Assembly (NCBI GenBank): GCA_963848295.1
Contig: CAWKDB010000004.1
Location: forward strand, 224,001 to 288,000
Length of the DNA: 64,000 bases
Direction of reading: 5' to 3'
Source: an uncultured delta proteobacterium
GTDB lineage: Bacteria > Myxococcota_A > Polyangia > Haliangiales > Haliangiaceae
The notes under the pieces are model-generated. The model searched no databases and was not told where the DNA came from. It was given only the letters and a program-made list of their open reading frames with translations. Position 1 is the first letter of the stretch. Each line of letters begins with the position of its first letter. A program made the translations under genes and the position numbers. Shown here piece after piece: positions 41,801 to 53,134 of the stretch.

Positions 41801-42880
41801 GTGATCAGTCCTGTGGCGGTCGCTTGTGGCGTTGTTAGTGCGATTGCACTTCCGGCGTGCGGTCGCGTCGACTTCGAGCCGTCCGGCGTCGGCTGGTGGA
41901 ACGACGCATGGCCGTACCGCGAGTCCCTCACGATCGATCATCGGCAGGTCGCAGGCGATGTGACCGATTTTCCCGTTCTGGTCATATTCGATGACGCGTC
42001 ACTCGGCGCACACGCAACGCCTGATGGGCACGATCTCGCATTCGTCGACGATGCTGGCGACGAGCTTCCGTACGAGCGCGAGAGCTACAGCGCGGTGCCG
42101 CCGAGCGCGGTCGTCTGGGTCCAGTTGCCCGCGGTCTCGGCCGAGCTGGACACCACGTTCGACGTCTACTACGGGAACGCCGCCGCGCCCGAGCAGGCGC
42201 AGCCACGAGCGGTCTGGAGCAACGCGTACGTCGGCGTTTACCACTTCGGCGACGGCACAACCCTCGACGTTCACGACTCGACCGGGAACAACGACGGAAC
42301 CGCGAACGGCGCGGTCGCAGCGCCGGACGCGATCGTCGGCGGTGGCCTCGCGCTAACGGGCGGGCCGGTCGTGACCGCGCCGACCGCAGGCGTAGACGGC
42401 GTGCCGAATGGTCTGAACACGGTCACGTTGTGGGTCGACTACGAAGGCCCGATCGGCAAAGCTCCCGTCGGCTTCGTGGTTGGCCCCGAGGTCTACGACG
42501 TTTGGTATGAGGCGCTCGACTGCGTGGGCTTCAACACGCAACAGGGCGACGTGCTCGGAACGACCGACGATCTGACGGGTCGCTGGCTGTACCTCGCGAT
42601 GGTGTTCTCCAACGGTGTGCCGACGGCGACTGCAAATGAGCTCTACGTCGACGGCCAACCCGAGACGCTCGCGGCATGTGGCACCGGTAGCCCCCTGAGC
42701 TACTCGGTTGGTGGGATCGTCGACTGGGGCGGGGATCCCGGCTTCGAGATGACCGGCACGCTCGACGAGGCCCGCATCGCGACCGGAGCGCGGAGCCCGG
42801 CGTGGATTGCGACCGAGTATGCGAATCAGCATGCCCCCGAGGCGTTCGTCGTGGCGGGCGCCGAGGAGGAACGGCCGTAG
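41801..42880 (+). CDS. DUF2341 + LamG lipoprotein
   Basis: ACGRVDF; WW..AWPYR, DFPVLV, DLAFVD, YYGN; GTLDEARI..ARS.AWI.TEY.NQ. Confidence 0.85.
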   Translation: MISPVAVACGVVSAIALPACGRVDFEPSGVGWWNDAWPYRESLTIDHRQVAGDVTDFPVLVIFDDASLGAHATPDGHDLAFVDDAGDELPYERESYSAVPPSAVVWVQLPAVSAELDTTFDVYYGNAAAPEQAQPRAVWSNAYVGVYHFGDGTTLDVHDSTGNNDGTANGAVAAPDAIVGGGLALTGGPVVTAPTAGVDGVPNGLNTVTLWVDYEGPIGKAPVGFVVGPEVYDVWYEALDCVGFNTQQGDVLGTTDDLTGRWLYLAMVFSNGVPTATANELYVDGQPETLAACGTGSPLSYSVGGIVDWGGDPGFEMTGTLDEARIATGARSPAWIATEYANQHAPEAFVVAGAEEERP

Positions 42881-42992
42881 ATCGCGCGCAGACGCGCGCC
42901 TCGGGCGCGGCACCGAAGGTCGCACGAGCTCGCGCCACGCGCTCCCGCGGTAGCCTTCTCGGACTTCGCATGGATGCGCGTACACTCGCACG

Positions 42993-43370
42993 ATGGCTCA
43001 GCCCACCGTCACGATCTTCCACAACCCTGGTTGAAGCACCTCCGTCTACGCCACGGCGGTCGCCGAGGAAGCCGGAGTGTCTTATCGCGCGGTCCAGTAT
43101 GCGAAGAAGGCAGAGCGCCCGGATCGAGCCACGCTCGAAAACCTGGTCGCGATCATCGAGGATCCCGTCGAGGATCTCGTGCGCAAGGACTCGCTGTTCA
43201 AGAAGCTCGGCCTCGATCCGGCCGACTACGTGAGCAAGCCGCGCGCGGTCGTCGACATCCTGGAGAAGTACCCGGCGCTGCTCCAGCGCCCGGTGATCGT
43301 GCGCGGCAAGAAAGCGATCATCGGCCGCCCGCGCGAGCGTGTGCCCGTGTTTCTGAAGTCCAAGCCCTGA
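42993..43370 (+). CDS. arsC: ArsC/Spx family reductase, selenocysteine-containing
   Basis: MAQPTVTIFHNPG-TGA(43032-43034)-STS aligns with ArsC HNPxCSxS; LVRK, YPALLQRPVIV, AIIGRP. Confidence 0.85.
43037..43079 (+). promoter_or_regulatory. Putative bacterial SECIS element
   Basis: CC-a-CGGC-GGTC-GCCG-a-GG upper stem, CTCCG/CGGAG lower stem; loop 23 nt after TGA. Confidence 0.7.
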
Positions 43371-43486: not shown

Positions 43487-44623
43487 ATGACCTCGAGCAG
43501 GCGACTCGCCGTTGCGTCCCTGTGCGGGGCGTTGCTCGTCGCGAGCGTCGCCGGCGAGTCCGCGGCTGCCGATCTCTCCGACATCGCGCGCTTCCTTGCT
43601 GGCAAGGGCGTCGCGCCCGACTCGAAGCTCGCCGAGCAGGCTCGAACGCAGTCGTATGTAGAGTACGCCGAGCAGATACGGTCCGGCTGGAAGCAGTTTC
43701 AGCAGCCGAACCTCGAGCGCATGCGGAGCTGGTGGACGGGCCGTGCACCGGCGAGGTACTCGACCGTGTTTTACGCGTTCAGCGGACCCGATATCGGGAA
43801 CGCGCTTGTCCTGTTCCCCGACGCCGACACGTATCTCATGTTCGGCCTCGAGTCCCCGGGCGCCATTCCGGACTTGCAGGACATGGACGAGGACGAGATC
43901 AGCTCGGGCTTGAACGAGCTCGAGGCGTCGCTGAGCACGATGCTCCAGGTGAACTACTTCTTCACCAAGGCCATGGAGAAGCAGCTGGGCAAAGGGCCGT
44001 TCAATAGCATCAGCAGCCTGCTCCTGTTCTTCCTCGGCATGAACGACTGCGAGGTGACGGGGGCGAGGAGGATTGCCATCGGTCCGAGCGGCGCCGTCGT
44101 GCAGGGAATGGCCGCCGACGACTCCGCGAGCGGACGTTCCCGCTCTCGTGTCCCGGGAGTCGAGATGACGTTTCGACGACGTGGCGGCAAGGAGCAGACC
44201 ATCCGCTACTTCATGGTGAACGTCGCGGATGCCGACCTCGCGAAGAGCTCACCCGAGCTCATGCCGTACCTCGAGAGCCAAGGACGTCTCGTGACCATGA
44301 TCAAGTCCGCGTCCTATCTGATGCACAAGGAAGGCATCGAAGAGCCGGCGCACTTCGAGCAGATTCGCTCGCTGATCCTCAGGCAGAGCGACTTCGTCGT
44401 GCAGGACGATTCAGGCGTACCGCTCAGGCTGTTCGCGCGCGACACGTGGACCCTGCGGTTTCACGGCAGGTACGAAGCGCCCACTCCAGAGTTCGCAAAA
44501 TATCTCGAGAAGGACTTGAAGATCGAGATGCAGAGGAACTCCTCGGGGAGGCTTCCATTCACCTACGGCTACGCCTACCAGCAGGGCGAGTCGAACCTCA
44601 TGACCGCGGAGCGAGCTCGGTAA
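43487..44623 (+). CDS. Conserved secreted hypothetical protein
   Basis: Signal peptide; motifs VFYAFSGPD, FGLE, KSASYLMH, QDDSGVP, LPFTYGY. Confidence 0.8.
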   Translation: MTSSRRLAVASLCGALLVASVAGESAAADLSDIARFLAGKGVAPDSKLAEQARTQSYVEYAEQIRSGWKQFQQPNLERMRSWWTGRAPARYSTVFYAFSGPDIGNALVLFPDADTYLMFGLESPGAIPDLQDMDEDEISSGLNELEASLSTMLQVNYFFTKAMEKQLGKGPFNSISSLLLFFLGMNDCEVTGARRIAIGPSGAVVQGMAADDSASGRSRSRVPGVEMTFRRRGGKEQTIRYFMVNVADADLAKSSPELMPYLESQGRLVTMIKSASYLMHKEGIEEPAHFEQIRSLILRQSDFVVQDDSGVPLRLFARDTWTLRFHGRYEAPTPEFAKYLEKDLKIEMQRNSSGRLPFTYGYAYQQGESNLMTAERAR

Positions 44624-44639
44624 TCGAGAAGGAGCAAGC

Positions 44640-45740
44640 ATGGTCAAGACCAGACAGCTACGCGTGGTGGGTTTGCTTCTGTGCTCGGCGGCTTGCGCCG
44701 GCCGGCAGAAGGCCGCCGAGGGCATGATTCCAGTCGCGAAGGCGATCACGATCTATAGCGCCGGTGGGAGCGTGGTCTCGGGAGTCATCGACCCGGCCGC
44801 GCTGGGTGCTCGCAGGCTTCGTCTGCCCGCGTCCGTCGCGGCCATCAGTCTCTCTCAGGCCGACCAGAGCTTGAAGTGGTTCACCGTCCAGGCGATCCCG
44901 GACACCAAGAAGGATGTGACCCACAAGCTCGTCGGGCTCCCTTCGCTGAAACCCGGAGCGCTGAAGTTCAACTACGCGTTGCCCGATATCACGTGGGCCC
45001 TCCAGCTGAAAGCGGAGATCACCGATGCGAAGTCGGTGAGCCTCCAGCTCCTGGCCGCGGTCAACATGAACGCGAGCGATCCATACAAGAACTGCGACGT
45101 CACCCTCGTGCTGAACAACGCGGTGAGCGTGGAGAAGCTCTCAGGGTCCACGTTCAAGCTGAGCTCGTTTGACCTCTATCCCCATCGCAACATCACCTAC
45201 AGCCTCGGCACCAAGGTCGCGGACTATTCGTTCATCCGCGAGTGGAATGCCTACGCGGGCAAGGACGAGGTCCACGTCCTGCTACAGGTGAAGAACCCGT
45301 TCTCGGTCGATCTGAACCAGACCAGCAGCTCCGTCGAGGCCAACCAGATCATCGTCGAATCGGGCACGATCAGCGACGAGACCGGGCCCGGAGCGGTGAT
45401 CTCGCTGCCGGCAGGGATCGATGACACGATCTCCACCTTCCGCTCGGTCAAGATCACCGAAGCGACAGACAAGCGACTCCTGCCGTTCAATCACCGAATC
45501 TCGTACGACATCGTCAATCGATCCGATCAACCGAAGACGCTCCGGCTCGTGACCTCACGGGTGATGGGCAACGAGCACCGCTCGGTCTATCACTTCACTC
45601 AGCCGCCCGACGCCACCCCGGACAATACGCTCGTCTGGATCCTCAAGCTCGAGCCGGGGAGCACCCGTACTCTCGAGTACGACTTCGACGCCGACATCAA
45701 GGACGTCGACGGCGAGAACGGATTCGAGCAGGGAGGGTAG
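44640..45740 (+). CDS. Hypothetical lipoprotein (weak DUF4139-like)
   Basis: RBS AAGGAG; lipobox SAAC; C-terminal LVWILKLEPGSTRTLEY. Confidence 0.7.
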   Translation: MVKTRQLRVVGLLLCSAACAGRQKAAEGMIPVAKAITIYSAGGSVVSGVIDPAALGARRLRLPASVAAISLSQADQSLKWFTVQAIPDTKKDVTHKLVGLPSLKPGALKFNYALPDITWALQLKAEITDAKSVSLQLLAAVNMNASDPYKNCDVTLVLNNAVSVEKLSGSTFKLSSFDLYPHRNITYSLGTKVADYSFIREWNAYAGKDEVHVLLQVKNPFSVDLNQTSSSVEANQIIVESGTISDETGPGAVISLPAGIDDTISTFRSVKITEATDKRLLPFNHRISYDIVNRSDQPKTLRLVTSRVMGNEHRSVYHFTQPPDATPDNTLVWILKLEPGSTRTLEYDFDADIKDVDGENGFEQGG

Positions 45741-45788: not shown

Positions 45789-47027
45789 TCATCTCGGCAT
45801 GACCCGCTGGCGCTGTAGCTCGATCAGCGTCCCGCTGCGCGAGTCGGTCACTCGCACCTGCGTCGTATCGACCACGACCAGGCCGGTCAGACACGCGGTG
45901 GACGCCGCGCAGGTGTCGCTCGTCGTGTAGATCGTACGAGCTTCGTTCGCGGTCCCGTCGACGGTGCCTCTGCCGTCGGCGAGCACCATCCGCACGGTGG
46001 TCCTCGACGTCACGAACAGGTTGCCGATCTCGTCGCACCCCAGGCCCGCCGGCGAGTCCACGGGAAGCATGTTCGCCGGCGCGCCATCGCCAGACGATGT
46101 CGTGGTCCCGTTGCCGAAAACCGTCGTGATGGACCCGGCTGTGGTCACACGGCGGACACGATCGTTGCCCGTATCGGCGACGAACAGGTCGCCATTGCCG
46201 CACCAGGCGACCGCGTGCGGCTGATAGAGCTCCGCGCTCGTGGCCGGGCAGTCGCTCCCCTCAGGGGGGCAGTCTCCGAAGAACCCGAGCATCTGAGGGG
46301 TTCCGGCAACCGTGGTCACGGTGGTGCCGGCGATCTCGCGGATGACGTGGTTGCCGGTGTCTGCGATGTACACGTTGCCGAGTCCGTCGACCGCGAGGCC
46401 GGTCGGAGCGACGAACCGGAACGATGCGCTTGTCGCCGGACCGTCGTCGCCGCCGAAACCGAAGTCCCCGGTCCCCGCGATCGTGGTGATGACGCCGCTG
46501 GTCGCATCGACCCGGCGGATCCGACCGTTGCCGGTGTCGCCGATGTACAGGTTGCCGGCGCCGTCCAGCGCCACGCCCGATGGGAGATCGAGTTGGGCGT
46601 TCGCGGCGGAACCACCATCGCCAGAGAACCCCGCGGTCCCGGTGCCGGCGACCGCGGTGACCGCGCCGGTCGATGCGTCGACCCGGTCGACGATCTGGCC
46701 GCCGGTGTTCGCGAAGTACACGTTGCCGTTCGCGTCGGCCGCCACGCCCGTCGCGCTCGGTGCCGGCGAGGCGGTGACCGCGGTCGCCGTCGCCTGCCAG
46801 TTGGTCTGCTCGCACGCGCCGCGTTGACACACGCCGAATGGCACGGCAATGCAGTTCGTGCCCTCGGCGTGACTTGCACATCCATTCACCAGCGCTGGAT
46901 CGATGCAGCCGCCGCCTTGCGGCTCGCACACCGTCGACGTCGGACACGTCGTCCCGTCGGCGCAGGTCGTCGTCGTCGGCGTGAAGCACCCGGCGAGCGC
47001 GGCGAGCGAGAGCGCGGCACGCTTCAT
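45789..47027 (-). CDS. NHL-repeat lipoprotein (short paralog)
   Basis: LAGC lipobox; AGTG..G.SGDGG.A, GNLYIGDTGNGRIRRVD repeats. Confidence 0.9.
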   Translation of the reverse strand: MKRAALSLAALAGCFTPTTTTCADGTTCPTSTVCEPQGGGCIDPALVNGCASHAEGTNCIAVPFGVCQRGACEQTNWQATATAVTASPAPSATGVAADANGNVYFANTGGQIVDRVDASTGAVTAVAGTGTAGFSGDGGSAANAQLDLPSGVALDGAGNLYIGDTGNGRIRRVDATSGVITTIAGTGDFGFGGDDGPATSASFRFVAPTGLAVDGLGNVYIADTGNHVIREIAGTTVTTVAGTPQMLGFFGDCPPEGSDCPATSAELYQPHAVAWCGNGDLFVADTGNDRVRRVTTAGSITTVFGNGTTTSSGDGAPANMLPVDSPAGLGCDEIGNLFVTSRTTVRMVLADGRGTVDGTANEARTIYTTSDTCAASTACLTGLVVVDTTQVRVTDSRSGTLIELQRQRVMPR

Positions 47028-50000
47028 GGGGCGGGGAGGCGCTCCAGCTCGATCAGCATGCCCGTGCAGGAATCGGTGATGCGCACGTGCGTGGAATCGA
47101 CGATGGCCACTGCCGTGAGACACCCCGTCGTCGAGGCCGGGAAGGTCGTACGAGGCGGCGCACCGTAGATCGTGCGTACCGGCCCGGTGCCGTCGACCAC
47201 GCCCGCGTCGTCGGCGAGCAGCATCCGCACGGCGTTCGTCGACGTCACGAACACGTTGCCGACATCGTCGCAGGCCAGGCCGAGCGGAAAGTCGACAGGT
47301 AACTCGCTCGCTGGCGCGCCCTCGCCCGATGACGCGGCGGCGCCGTTACCGAGCACCGTCGTGATCGTGCCGTCGGCGGCGATCCGACGCACGCGCTGGT
47401 TGCCGGTGTCGGCGACGAAGATGTCTCCGTTGCGGCACCCGGTGAGCGCCCGCGGCTGATCGAACAGCGCCCCCGACGCCGGGAGGCCGTCGCCGGAGAA
47501 GCCGGCCGTCTGGGGCGTGCCGGCGAACGTCGACACGGTCGCGCCGGTCGCGTCGATGGCGCGGATGACATGGTTGCCGGTATCGGCCACGTAGACGATG
47601 CCGGATGCAGGATCGCGGTAGAGACCGGTCGGGTCGGACAGCTCGGCGGTCGCGCTCGGTCCGTCGCGCCAGCCGGCGACGCCCGACGCGAGGTCCGCGA
47701 TCGTCCAGGTCTCCGGGGTCGCGGGATCGGTCACGGTCACGACGTGCACCAGCTCGTGGCCGGCTTCGGTCGGGTTGGACTCGGTCAGATAGATCGATGT
47801 GACGCCATCGAAGGCAACGCCGGCCACGTTGCCGAAGTTCTGATCGCGGAACCTCGCGAGGTTACTCGTCGCGGTTCCGACCGCGTTCGGATAGCGACCC
47901 GTGACGACATCGAGCGAGGTCGCGTCGACCGCTTCGACAGTCCCGCTCGTGCCGCCGGCGACGAGCTCGAATGGCGCGGCGGTCACCAGCGCTCTGGGAT
48001 CGGCGAGCCGAGCCTGGGCCAATGGCCCGGTGCCCGCCGGATCCACCGGCCCCGCAACGGTCGTGATGAGGCCGGCGGTGTCGATGCGGCGGACATGGCC
48101 GCCGGGGCTGCTGGAGGCGTCGGTGACATAGATCTGCCCGAGTGTGTCGACCGCGACCCCCAGAGGGGCGAGCAGGGCGGCTGTAGCGGGGCCGCCGTCG
48201 CCGTCGCCGTTGATTCCGACGTCACCGGTGCCCGCGACCGTGGTGATGACGCCAGCCGTATCCACCCGCCGGATGCGGTTGTTCTGCGAGTCGGCGATGT
48301 AGAGGTTGCCGAGCCCATCGATGGCGACCCCCGTAGGCGTGTACAGCTCCGCGGTCGTCGCCGCGATGCCGTCGCCGTTGTACCCGGAGGTTCCCGTGCC
48401 TGCGATCGTCGTGATGATACCCATCGTGTCCACGCGCCGAACGCAGTAGTTGTACGTGTCGGCGATGTAGACGTTGCCGAGCCCATCGACCGCGACGCCA
48501 CGGGGATAGTGCAGCTGCGCGGCGGTGGCCGCGCCTCCGTCGCCGCTGTAGCCGAGCGTCCCGACGCCCGCGACGGTCGTGATGACGCCGGTCGTGTCCA
48601 CGCGCCGGACCCGGTTGTTGAAGGTATCGGCGATGTAGAGATTGCCGGCCGCGTCGACCGCGACGCCGTAGGGGAGAGACAGGTTTGCTGCGGTCGCGGC
48701 GCCGCCGTCGCCGCTGTACCCAAGGGTCCCGGTGCCCGCGACGGTCGTGATCGTGCCGTCGGGATCGACGCGCCTGATGCGGTTCTTGGACTCGTCGGCG
48801 ATGTAGATGTTGCCGAGTCCGTCGATCGCCACGCTCTCGGGGGCGCTGAGCTCGGCGGCGGTCGCGGCGCCGCCGTCGCCGCTGTACCCGAAGGTCCCGG
48901 TGCCGGCGACCGTGGTGATGACGCCGGAGCTGTCGATGTGTCGGATCCGGCTGTTGTTGGTGTCGGCGATGTAGACCTCGCCGAGGGCGTCGATCGCGAC
49001 GTCGTTCGGGTCGCCGAGCTGGGCGTCGGTCGCGGCGCCGCCGTCGCCGATCGTCGACCCGCCCCCAGCGATCGTCGTGACATCTCCGGCGGAGTCGACA
49101 TACAGAATGACGTCGTGGTCGGTGTCGGCGATATAGGTCCCGAGCGCGTTGACCGCCACACCGTGCGGCGAGCTCAACGTCGCGGACGGTGTGAACGGCT
49201 CGACGTTGCCTGCCATGTCCAGGTCCAGGATGCGGCCGTTGCCCGAGTCGGCGATATAGACGTCAGCCCCGTAGGTGGTGACGCCGAACGGTTGGTCGAG
49301 CCCGCTGGTCGGGGCGAACGTCGTGATCACGCCGCTGGTGTCTACGCGACGGACGCTGTTGTTGCCGGTGTCGGCGATATAGACCTCGCCGTTCGCGTCG
49401 ACCGCGACCCCGTACGGTGAGGACAACTGCGCGCTGGTCGCGGCGCCGCCGTCCCCCGCGGACCCGAGAATCCCGGAGCCCGCGATCGTCGTGATGATGC
49501 CGGCGCTGTCCACGCGCCGGATGACATTGTTGCTGGTGTCGGCGATGTAGAGATCGCCGAGGCCGTCGACCACGACATCAGCGGGGTAGTACAGCTGCGC
49601 GCTCGTCGCCGGGCCGCCGTCTCCGGAATCGCCGTGGTTCCGGGGGAGGCCGCTGCCCGCGACCGTCGCGATGATCCCCTCGGTGTCGATGCGCCGGATC
49701 CGGTTGTTCCCTCGGTCAGCGATGTAGACTTGGCCGAGCCCGTCGACCGCGACACCTTGCGGCGTATCCAACTCCGCCTCGGTCGCGGCGCCGCCGTCGC
49801 CAGCGTATCCCTCCGTTCCGGTGCCCGCGATCGTCGTGAGGAACCCCGCGGTGTCGAGGCGCAGGATCCGATGGTCAGACGTGTCGGCGATGTAGAGGTT
49901 GCCGGCCTGATCGACCGCCACGCGAAACGGACTCGAGAGCTGGGCGGTCGTCGCGTTGGCTTGCCCGCCGATCACCACCGTCGCTTGCCACGTGGTCTGC

Positions 50001-50220
50001 CCGCACACACCTTGCTGGCACACTCCGAACGGGAGCGCCGAGCAGTTCGCGCCTTCGGCTTCGCCGGTGCACGCGGTCACGAGAGTCGGATCGACACAGC
50101 CGCCGCCAGCCGGCGCGCATATCGTCGACTCGGGGCAGGTCGTGCCGTCGGTGCACGTCGTCGTCTGCGGCGTGAAGCAAGCCGCGAATACCGCGAGCAC
50201 ACCGAATGCGATCGCGCGAG

Positions 50221-50224
<4 letters not shown>
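47024..50224 (-). CDS. Large NHL-repeat lipoprotein
   Basis: FAAC lipobox; many GVAVD..GN.YIADT.N.RIRRVD repeats. Confidence 0.92.
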
Positions 50225-53103
<2,879 letters not shown>

Positions 53104-53134
53104 CACCGTGATCGTATCAGTTACCATCACCTCG

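Follow-up and report, generated by a model that had tools for sequence, protein, structure and literature searches.

A predicted selenocysteine-containing ArsC-family protein encoded apart from the ars operon in an uncultured myxococcal genome

Selenoproteins of the ArsC family have been described from sequence on several occasions. Fourteen UxxS selenoproteins named "arsenate reductase" were predicted in 2005 (PMC1088965), 77 sequences were counted for an "Arsenate reductase" selenoprotein family (PMC2398784), and an arsenate reductase-like protein serves as a search example in PMC13326102. In a 2026 review the family appears under TIGR00014 and its proteins are described as for the most part uncharacterised (PMC13188914). 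According to the published descriptions, members of this family, also called "ArsC 1" (COG1393, pfam03960, TIGR00014), have a UxxS motif with a single selenocysteine (Sec) at the catalytic Cys position, a SECIS element just downstream and widespread Cys homologues. The protein reported here has the same domain and traits, and no defining difference emerged from these descriptions, although the published sets came from marine metagenomes and the likeness is one of description, not of member sequences. The first-pass annotation of this DNA had noted that Sec forms of ArsC-like proteins were already reported, and the published family confirms it. The gene thus adds one member to a family predicted since 2005, and BSepDB or the review supplements may already list close relatives. 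A separate "Arsenate reductase-like" family (NF041106; PMC13188914) also consists of ArsC-like selenoproteins but has a UxxC motif, and NF041106 was absent among the NCBIfam matches at E <= 0.01. Our literature search turned up no assay of any naturally Sec-containing ArsC and one case of Sec-ArsC expression, an engineered Bacillus subtilis enzyme used as a mass-spectrometry reporter.

The glutaredoxin-dependent E. coli R773 ArsC (PDB 1i9d, 1jzw) shares the fold of the present protein (TM 0.77–0.78), and its His8, Asn9, Ser15, Arg60, Arg94, Pro95, Arg107 and Pro108 are all matched. The present protein differs in having Sec for Cys12, Val for Arg16, Gly for Cys106, a shorter C-terminus, an identity of 27–28% and a location outside an ars operon. 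The putative arsenate reductases 3rdw and 3f0i were the best sequence and fold matches (E 8.6e-12; 28–33% identity; TM 0.71–0.76), with the same length and a GRP motif, but have Cys and a following Arg (CSKSR). Spx/MgsR and YffB proteins (TIGR01617, NF002459; PDB 1z3e, 1rw1, 2kok) belong to the same Pfam family and fold but are described as lacking the arginine triad, which is itself reported as essential for arsenate binding (PMC3169414, PMC5593903).

The locus lies in a window of 64,000 nucleotides, the whole stretch of DNA that was analysed. A frame on the + strand runs from an ATG at 42993–42995 through an internal TGA at 43032–43034 (context HNPG-TGA-STSV) and stays open to a TGA at 43368–43370, and its read-through product has 125 residues, a single UxxS (U-S-T-S) and no Cys. 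The mechanical list of open reading frames begins the ArsC-like gene at GTG 43077 (97 aa). It had been proposed at first pass that the TGA-containing frame runs into this ORF and that the UGA stands at the catalytic Cys of ArsC; direct reading of the frame bore out the former, and codon 14 aligned with Cys12 of E. coli ArsC (1i9d). The gene is intact and encodes a predicted selenoprotein of a known family, with the following features:

42981–42986, + strand: TACACT, a hexamer resembling a -10 element, 6 nt upstream of the start codon; likely a leaderless-mRNA promoter (from hexamer position in relatives and genome)
42993–43370, + strand: predicted ArsC-family selenoprotein gene, 125 residues, thioredoxin-like fold, UxxS motif (PF03960, TIGR00014, fold model)
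43020–43046, + strand: active-site loop codons His10-Asn11-Pro12-Gly13-Sec14-Ser15-Thr16-Ser17-Val18, corresponding to His8 to Arg16 of E. coli ArsC (alignment)
43032–43034, + strand: in-frame TGA, codon 14, predicted Sec at the catalytic Cys12 position (alignment, relatives)
43051–43068, + strand: predicted SECIS upper hairpin with a 7-position stem (6 paired here) and a GGUC loop at 43058–43061, lying 23 nt downstream of the UGA; the extended predicted stem spans about 43040–43078 (folding, relatives)
43182–43184, + strand: Arg64, equivalent to Arg60 of E. coli ArsC, first of the arginine triad (alignment)
43287–43289, + strand: Arg99, equivalent to Arg94, followed by the conserved Pro100 (alignment)
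43326–43328, + strand: Arg112, equivalent to Arg107 (alignment)
43368–43370, + strand: terminal TGA stop (frame, relatives)

Reading the whole frame corrects the annotation, since gene callers clip such genes after the UGA and the active site is lost: the best 16 protein matches (73–95% identity) were all 86–105 residues long, whereas full-length matches begin near 60% identity and carry Cys. Close relatives stop at the same codon as this gene, with TGA or TAG, and no significant fold was detected after the terminal stop (z 0.98). The first pass had also singled out a UGA with two meanings in one mRNA. Both TGAs are real, but such double use, for Sec and for termination, is ordinary and not noteworthy because TGA is the commonest stop of the genome (822 of 1582 long frames). 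TGA is the stop in 15/34 Sec forms versus 19/20 Cys forms of the clade described below; Sec genes may thus tend to avoid a UGA stop, although kinship confounds the comparison.

The internal TGA was conserved in relatives. At the codon-14 position, 159 placed related loci, drawn from metagenomes, from named genomes and from 401 genomes within the phylum, carried 37 TGA, 117 TGC and 5 TGT codons and no other; this count includes some duplicate loci, leaves out the gene itself, three extrapolated rows and three unplaceable loci, and over-samples distant Cys forms because one search pattern ended in Cys. TGA was present in all nine fetched loci at 63% identity or above. Including this one, there were 34 distinct Sec proteins from several phyla, and the closest named relative was an uncultured Kofleriaceae (Myxococcota) bin (97%). 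The sequence itself was compared with assembled contigs, not raw reads, from four runs, all of which agreed with the TGA: one contig of run X1, which may be the source sample, was identical over 42932–43100, and contigs of relatives in runs X2, X3 and X4 spanned the codon with differences elsewhere and none at 43032–43034.

The selenocysteine machinery, which the first-pass annotation had proposed to look for, was located in the source genome (7.78 Mb, 85% complete): selA, selB and selD scored above their cut-offs, and a tRNA-Sec scored 67 bits. SelD, encoded at G000:C10:3584927-3585883 (G000 being the source genome), is a Cys form. A selA match was present in 24 of 26 genomes carrying the TGA form versus 12 of 21 carrying Cys forms (11 of 20 without the unpublished genome G425), and in none of the eight genomes of one freshwater actinobacterial Cys subclade; as kin are not independent, these co-occurrence counts are descriptive and not tests. 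A genome-wide scan for TGA plus hairpin yielded 296 raw matches; of the eight inspected, a set well short of a full selenoproteome, only the present gene and a rhodanese-like gene looked like real selenoproteins. The latter, a second likely selenoprotein (G000:C2:299161-299622, minus strand; L181:565-969), carries its in-frame TGA within a UxxC motif, with the same GGUC-loop hairpin behind it, and did not reach the score thresholds of the rhodanese selenoprotein models. No Sec formate dehydrogenase scored above cut-off in the source genome, and a weak molybdopterin-enzyme match with a TGA lies at C2:656683-657246.

A bacterial SECIS is modelled as a 3–9-nt loop with G in its first two positions on a 4–16-bp upper stem, 16–37 nt after the UGA, with an MFE <= -7.5 kcal/mol (PMC13188914). 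The predicted hairpin fits this model, with its 4-nt GGUC loop, 23-nt spacing and -16.8 kcal/mol for 43040–43078; the MFE of the 18-nt hairpin top alone was -7.4. Since the fold energy downstream of the UGA was not better than that of shuffled sequences (z -0.56 to 0.62), the SECIS claim rests on comparison with relatives. Pairing probability of the hairpin exceeded 0.5 in 20 of 30 distinct close TGA sequences versus 0 of 19 close Cys sequences, a comparison whose stem was defined on this gene and so favours its kin; a few Sec forms have another predicted hairpin. The Ala-Val-Ala codons of the hairpin were GCG-GTC-GCY in 26/26 genes having it, all of them Sec forms, across a GC3 of 0.38–0.88, and elsewhere in those genes GCG accounted for 83/178 Ala codons and GTC for 135/317 Val codons. 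In 15 chosen sequences, 96% of stem cells paired versus 29–71% for slid stems. Covariation of the stem was weak, with one pair changed on both sides and 123 of 500 shuffles scoring as high. SelB would bind the GGUC hairpin and deliver Sec-tRNA at codon 14, and we infer that Sec is very probably inserted there in this way.

These data also bear on other accounts of the internal TGA. If it were a sequencing error or a nonsense mutation, or if the true product were the 97-aa ORF from GTG 43077, the 86–105-residue products that gene callers give for the best 16 database matches would be as expected, but we consider this highly improbable: the TGA recurs in the 34 distinct proteins of several phyla, the hairpin and selA co-occur with it, codons 5–28 are conserved in close relatives and the 97-aa ORF has no active-site loop. 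A sequencing error or nonsense allele was ruled out by retention of the TGA in all nine of the closest fetched loci. Rare Cys-inserting tRNAs with a UCA anticodon exist, and the UGA might in principle be decoded as Cys or Trp, but no finding here speaks for it; the chance of this is smaller still, given that TGA is the commonest stop of the genome, that the UCA tRNA matches the Rfam tRNA-Sec over its full length and that selA, selB and selD are present.

The proposed ArsC-family membership was upheld by alignment. The full protein matched PF03960 (Pfam ArsC) with 44 bits against a cut-off of 24, and TIGR00014, the best NCBIfam model, gave the short ORF 46.6 bits and the full protein 77.2 bits, still below the equivalog cut-off of 106.05. 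Fold matches of a structure model (pLDDT 83.9) were led by ArsC structures (3rdw, 3f0i and E. coli ArsC; TM 0.71–0.78), with Spx and YffB behind, and the best sequence matches were likewise ArsC structures, ahead of Spx and YffB. His10, Ser17, Arg64, Arg99, Pro100, Arg112 and Pro113, the equivalents of His8, Ser15, Arg60, Arg94, Pro95, Arg107 and Pro108 of E. coli ArsC, were invariant in 34/34 Sec forms. All positions of the ArsC residue set (His8/Asn9/Ser15 plus Arg60/Arg94/Arg107) were matched, and the protein keeps the residue sets by which arsenate reductases are reported to be recognised (PMC5593903, PMC3169414).

A quick tree, which took 89 of 141 rows and from which no order of gains and losses was drawn, contained a 52-row branch (support 98) of 32 Sec and 20 Cys forms. 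The Val seen at first pass in place of the Arg that usually follows CSxS proved to be a trait of this clade: Val18 aligns with Arg16, whose equivalent was found in 2 of 52 clade members versus 88 of 89 sequences outside. Arg16 is not mentioned in the available text of PMC3169414 or PMC5593903. A second Cys was absent in 50 of 52 clade members, so re-reduction must come from outside the protein. Three sequences titled Bifidobacterium breve or Bifidobacteriaceae (L087, L089, L116) group with Microthrixaceae-like and Thermoleophilia sequences, and their titles are probably wrong.

No Shine-Dalgarno-like sequence was found before ATG 42993, and the TACACT reported 6 nt upstream in the first-pass annotation was indeed located there. 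Of 55 related genes, 38 had TANNNT 5–8 nt upstream of the start codon, versus 0–2 of 55 at five control offsets; a Shine-Dalgarno-like motif was present in 12 of the 55, and only 2 had both. Genome-wide, TANNNT peaked 6–7 nt before ATG (450 and 480 versus about 150–250 at most other offsets, about 2.5 times background), which suggests that many genes of the source genome are leaderless. Because of this placement in relatives and genome and the missing Shine-Dalgarno-like sequence, a leaderless mRNA starting at or next to ATG 42993 appears likely. A sigma-70 scan returned no full site before the gene; one terminator-like match inside the gene from that scan was disregarded. Searching titles and abstracts, we found no case of a leaderless bacterial selenoprotein mRNA.

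The absence of adjacent ars operon genes, already remarked on at first pass, was confirmed at the locus and holds for the clade: among 100 neighbouring ORFs at 28 loci there was no arsenic-resistance family. Nor was any neighbour conserved across clades at these 28 loci, as judged from heuristic ORFs of at least 90 aa that may miss small genes; two MFS transporters were among the neighbours. DNA similarity to 12 related loci ended at the limits of the gene itself. In the window, the gene is flanked by those for a DUF2341/LamG protein and for two proteins with no firm family assignment. The upstream gene (41801–42880) has DUF2341 and LamG-like domains, and the two downstream ORFs (43490–45740) encode 377 aa with no family and 366 aa with a weak DUF4139 match; the GC of these two is 59.5–62.5% versus 63–73% around them, and they were possibly acquired separately. 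Two long NHL-like-repeat proteins and a Ser/Thr kinase-NTPase gene were recognised by eye from translations at 45789–50224 and 50221–53130.

The ars cluster of this genome is distant, on contig C10 (L175, G000:C10:3875208-3879191), where arsR-acr3-arsC(LMW-PTP type)-arsM share a strand and another LMW-PTP-type arsC is divergently oriented; the genome also has gshB and five glutaredoxin-domain matches. Among 36 carrier genomes, acr3, arsM and gshB each scored above cut-off in five and the broad ArsP family in 12, and arsB was above cut-off in none, with four weaker matches, in a search that failed to pick up its E. coli control. Only 5–6 of the 36 had a known arsenite pump, and acr3, arsB, arsM and ArsP were all unmatched in 14; the carriers are mostly metagenome bins whose completeness is not stated, and the counts cover these four arsenic families, with aquaglyceroporins, ArsK and ArsJ outside their scope. 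Genomes G403, G404, G419, G420 and G433 have ArsM-like matches that each contain a single in-frame TGA and are probably Sec arsenite methyltransferases.

Taken together, the data are best explained by a Sec-containing ArsC-type enzyme, predicted to act as a stand-alone arsenate-to-arsenite reductase outside the ars operon (probability about 0.58). The Sec14 selenolate would attack an oxyanion held by Arg64, Arg99 and Arg112, as Cys12 does in E. coli ArsC, and the enzyme, having no second Cys, would be re-reduced externally, in this genome probably by glutathione and glutaredoxin. Arsenate seems the likeliest substrate by a modest preference, another oxyanion or a thiol target being the main rival; it is ranked first because it is the sole substrate that the text of PMC3169414 and PMC5593903 ties to this pocket. 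We lean slightly towards a joint proposal in which arsenate would be the physiological substrate and arsenite would leave by way of the Acr3 pump or ArsM encoded in the distant ars operon. Several findings count against the arsenate reading, namely the TIGR00014 score below the equivalog cut-off, the loss of the Arg16 equivalent in the clade, the absence of arsenic-resistance families around the 28 loci, the scarcity of acr3, arsB, arsM and gshB matches among carriers and the two LMW-PTP-type arsC genes in the organism's own ars operon.

It is quite possible, if on balance not probable, that the same selenoprotein has another job, as a housekeeping selenol reductase that binds a different oxyanion or an oxidised thiol target in its arginine pocket and is recycled by whatever thiol system its host has. 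The first-pass annotation had already suggested, from the missing ars neighbours, that the substrate may not be arsenate. The clade-wide loss of the Arg16 equivalent, the lack of ars genes at all 28 loci, the separate ArsC genes of this genome and the scarcity of pumps and gshB among carriers would agree with such a role, as would a best PDB match that is itself a "putative" arsenate reductase at 33% identity and a family that the 2026 review (PMC13188914) describes as largely uncharacterised. Against it, the arginine triad, His and Ser are invariant, a set tied to arsenate in PMC3169414 and PMC5593903, and the scarcity of pumps comes mostly from bins with no stated completeness, an ArsB search that missed its control and a count without the other export routes. 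A function as an Spx/MgsR-like redox regulator or YffB-like thiol reductase with Sec as the sensor is very unlikely. The fold is the same, Gly stands at the Cys106 position as in Spx, and the Spx and MgsR models did match weakly, but with 38.8 and 36.8 bits they fell far under their cut-offs of 75.05 and 123 and reached half the ArsC score; moreover, the protein has UxxS with no second Cys, keeps residue sets that Spx and YffB lack and is without the YffB/YusI set.

A broader proposal is slightly less probable. The branch could constitute a distinct Sec/Cys clade of orphan ArsC-fold enzymes in Myxococcota, Actinomycetota and Verrucomicrobiota that dropped Arg16, never stand with ars genes and are retained in genomes where neither an arsenite pump nor a glutathione synthetase was detected; its members might be housekeeping selenoenzymes for a non-arsenate substrate, misnamed since 2005 and usually translated from leaderless mRNAs with Sec 14 codons in. 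The clade supplies natural Sec/Cys pairs that bear on a modest question, the contribution of selenium to ArsC chemistry and the ability, if any, of these orphan enzymes to reduce arsenate.
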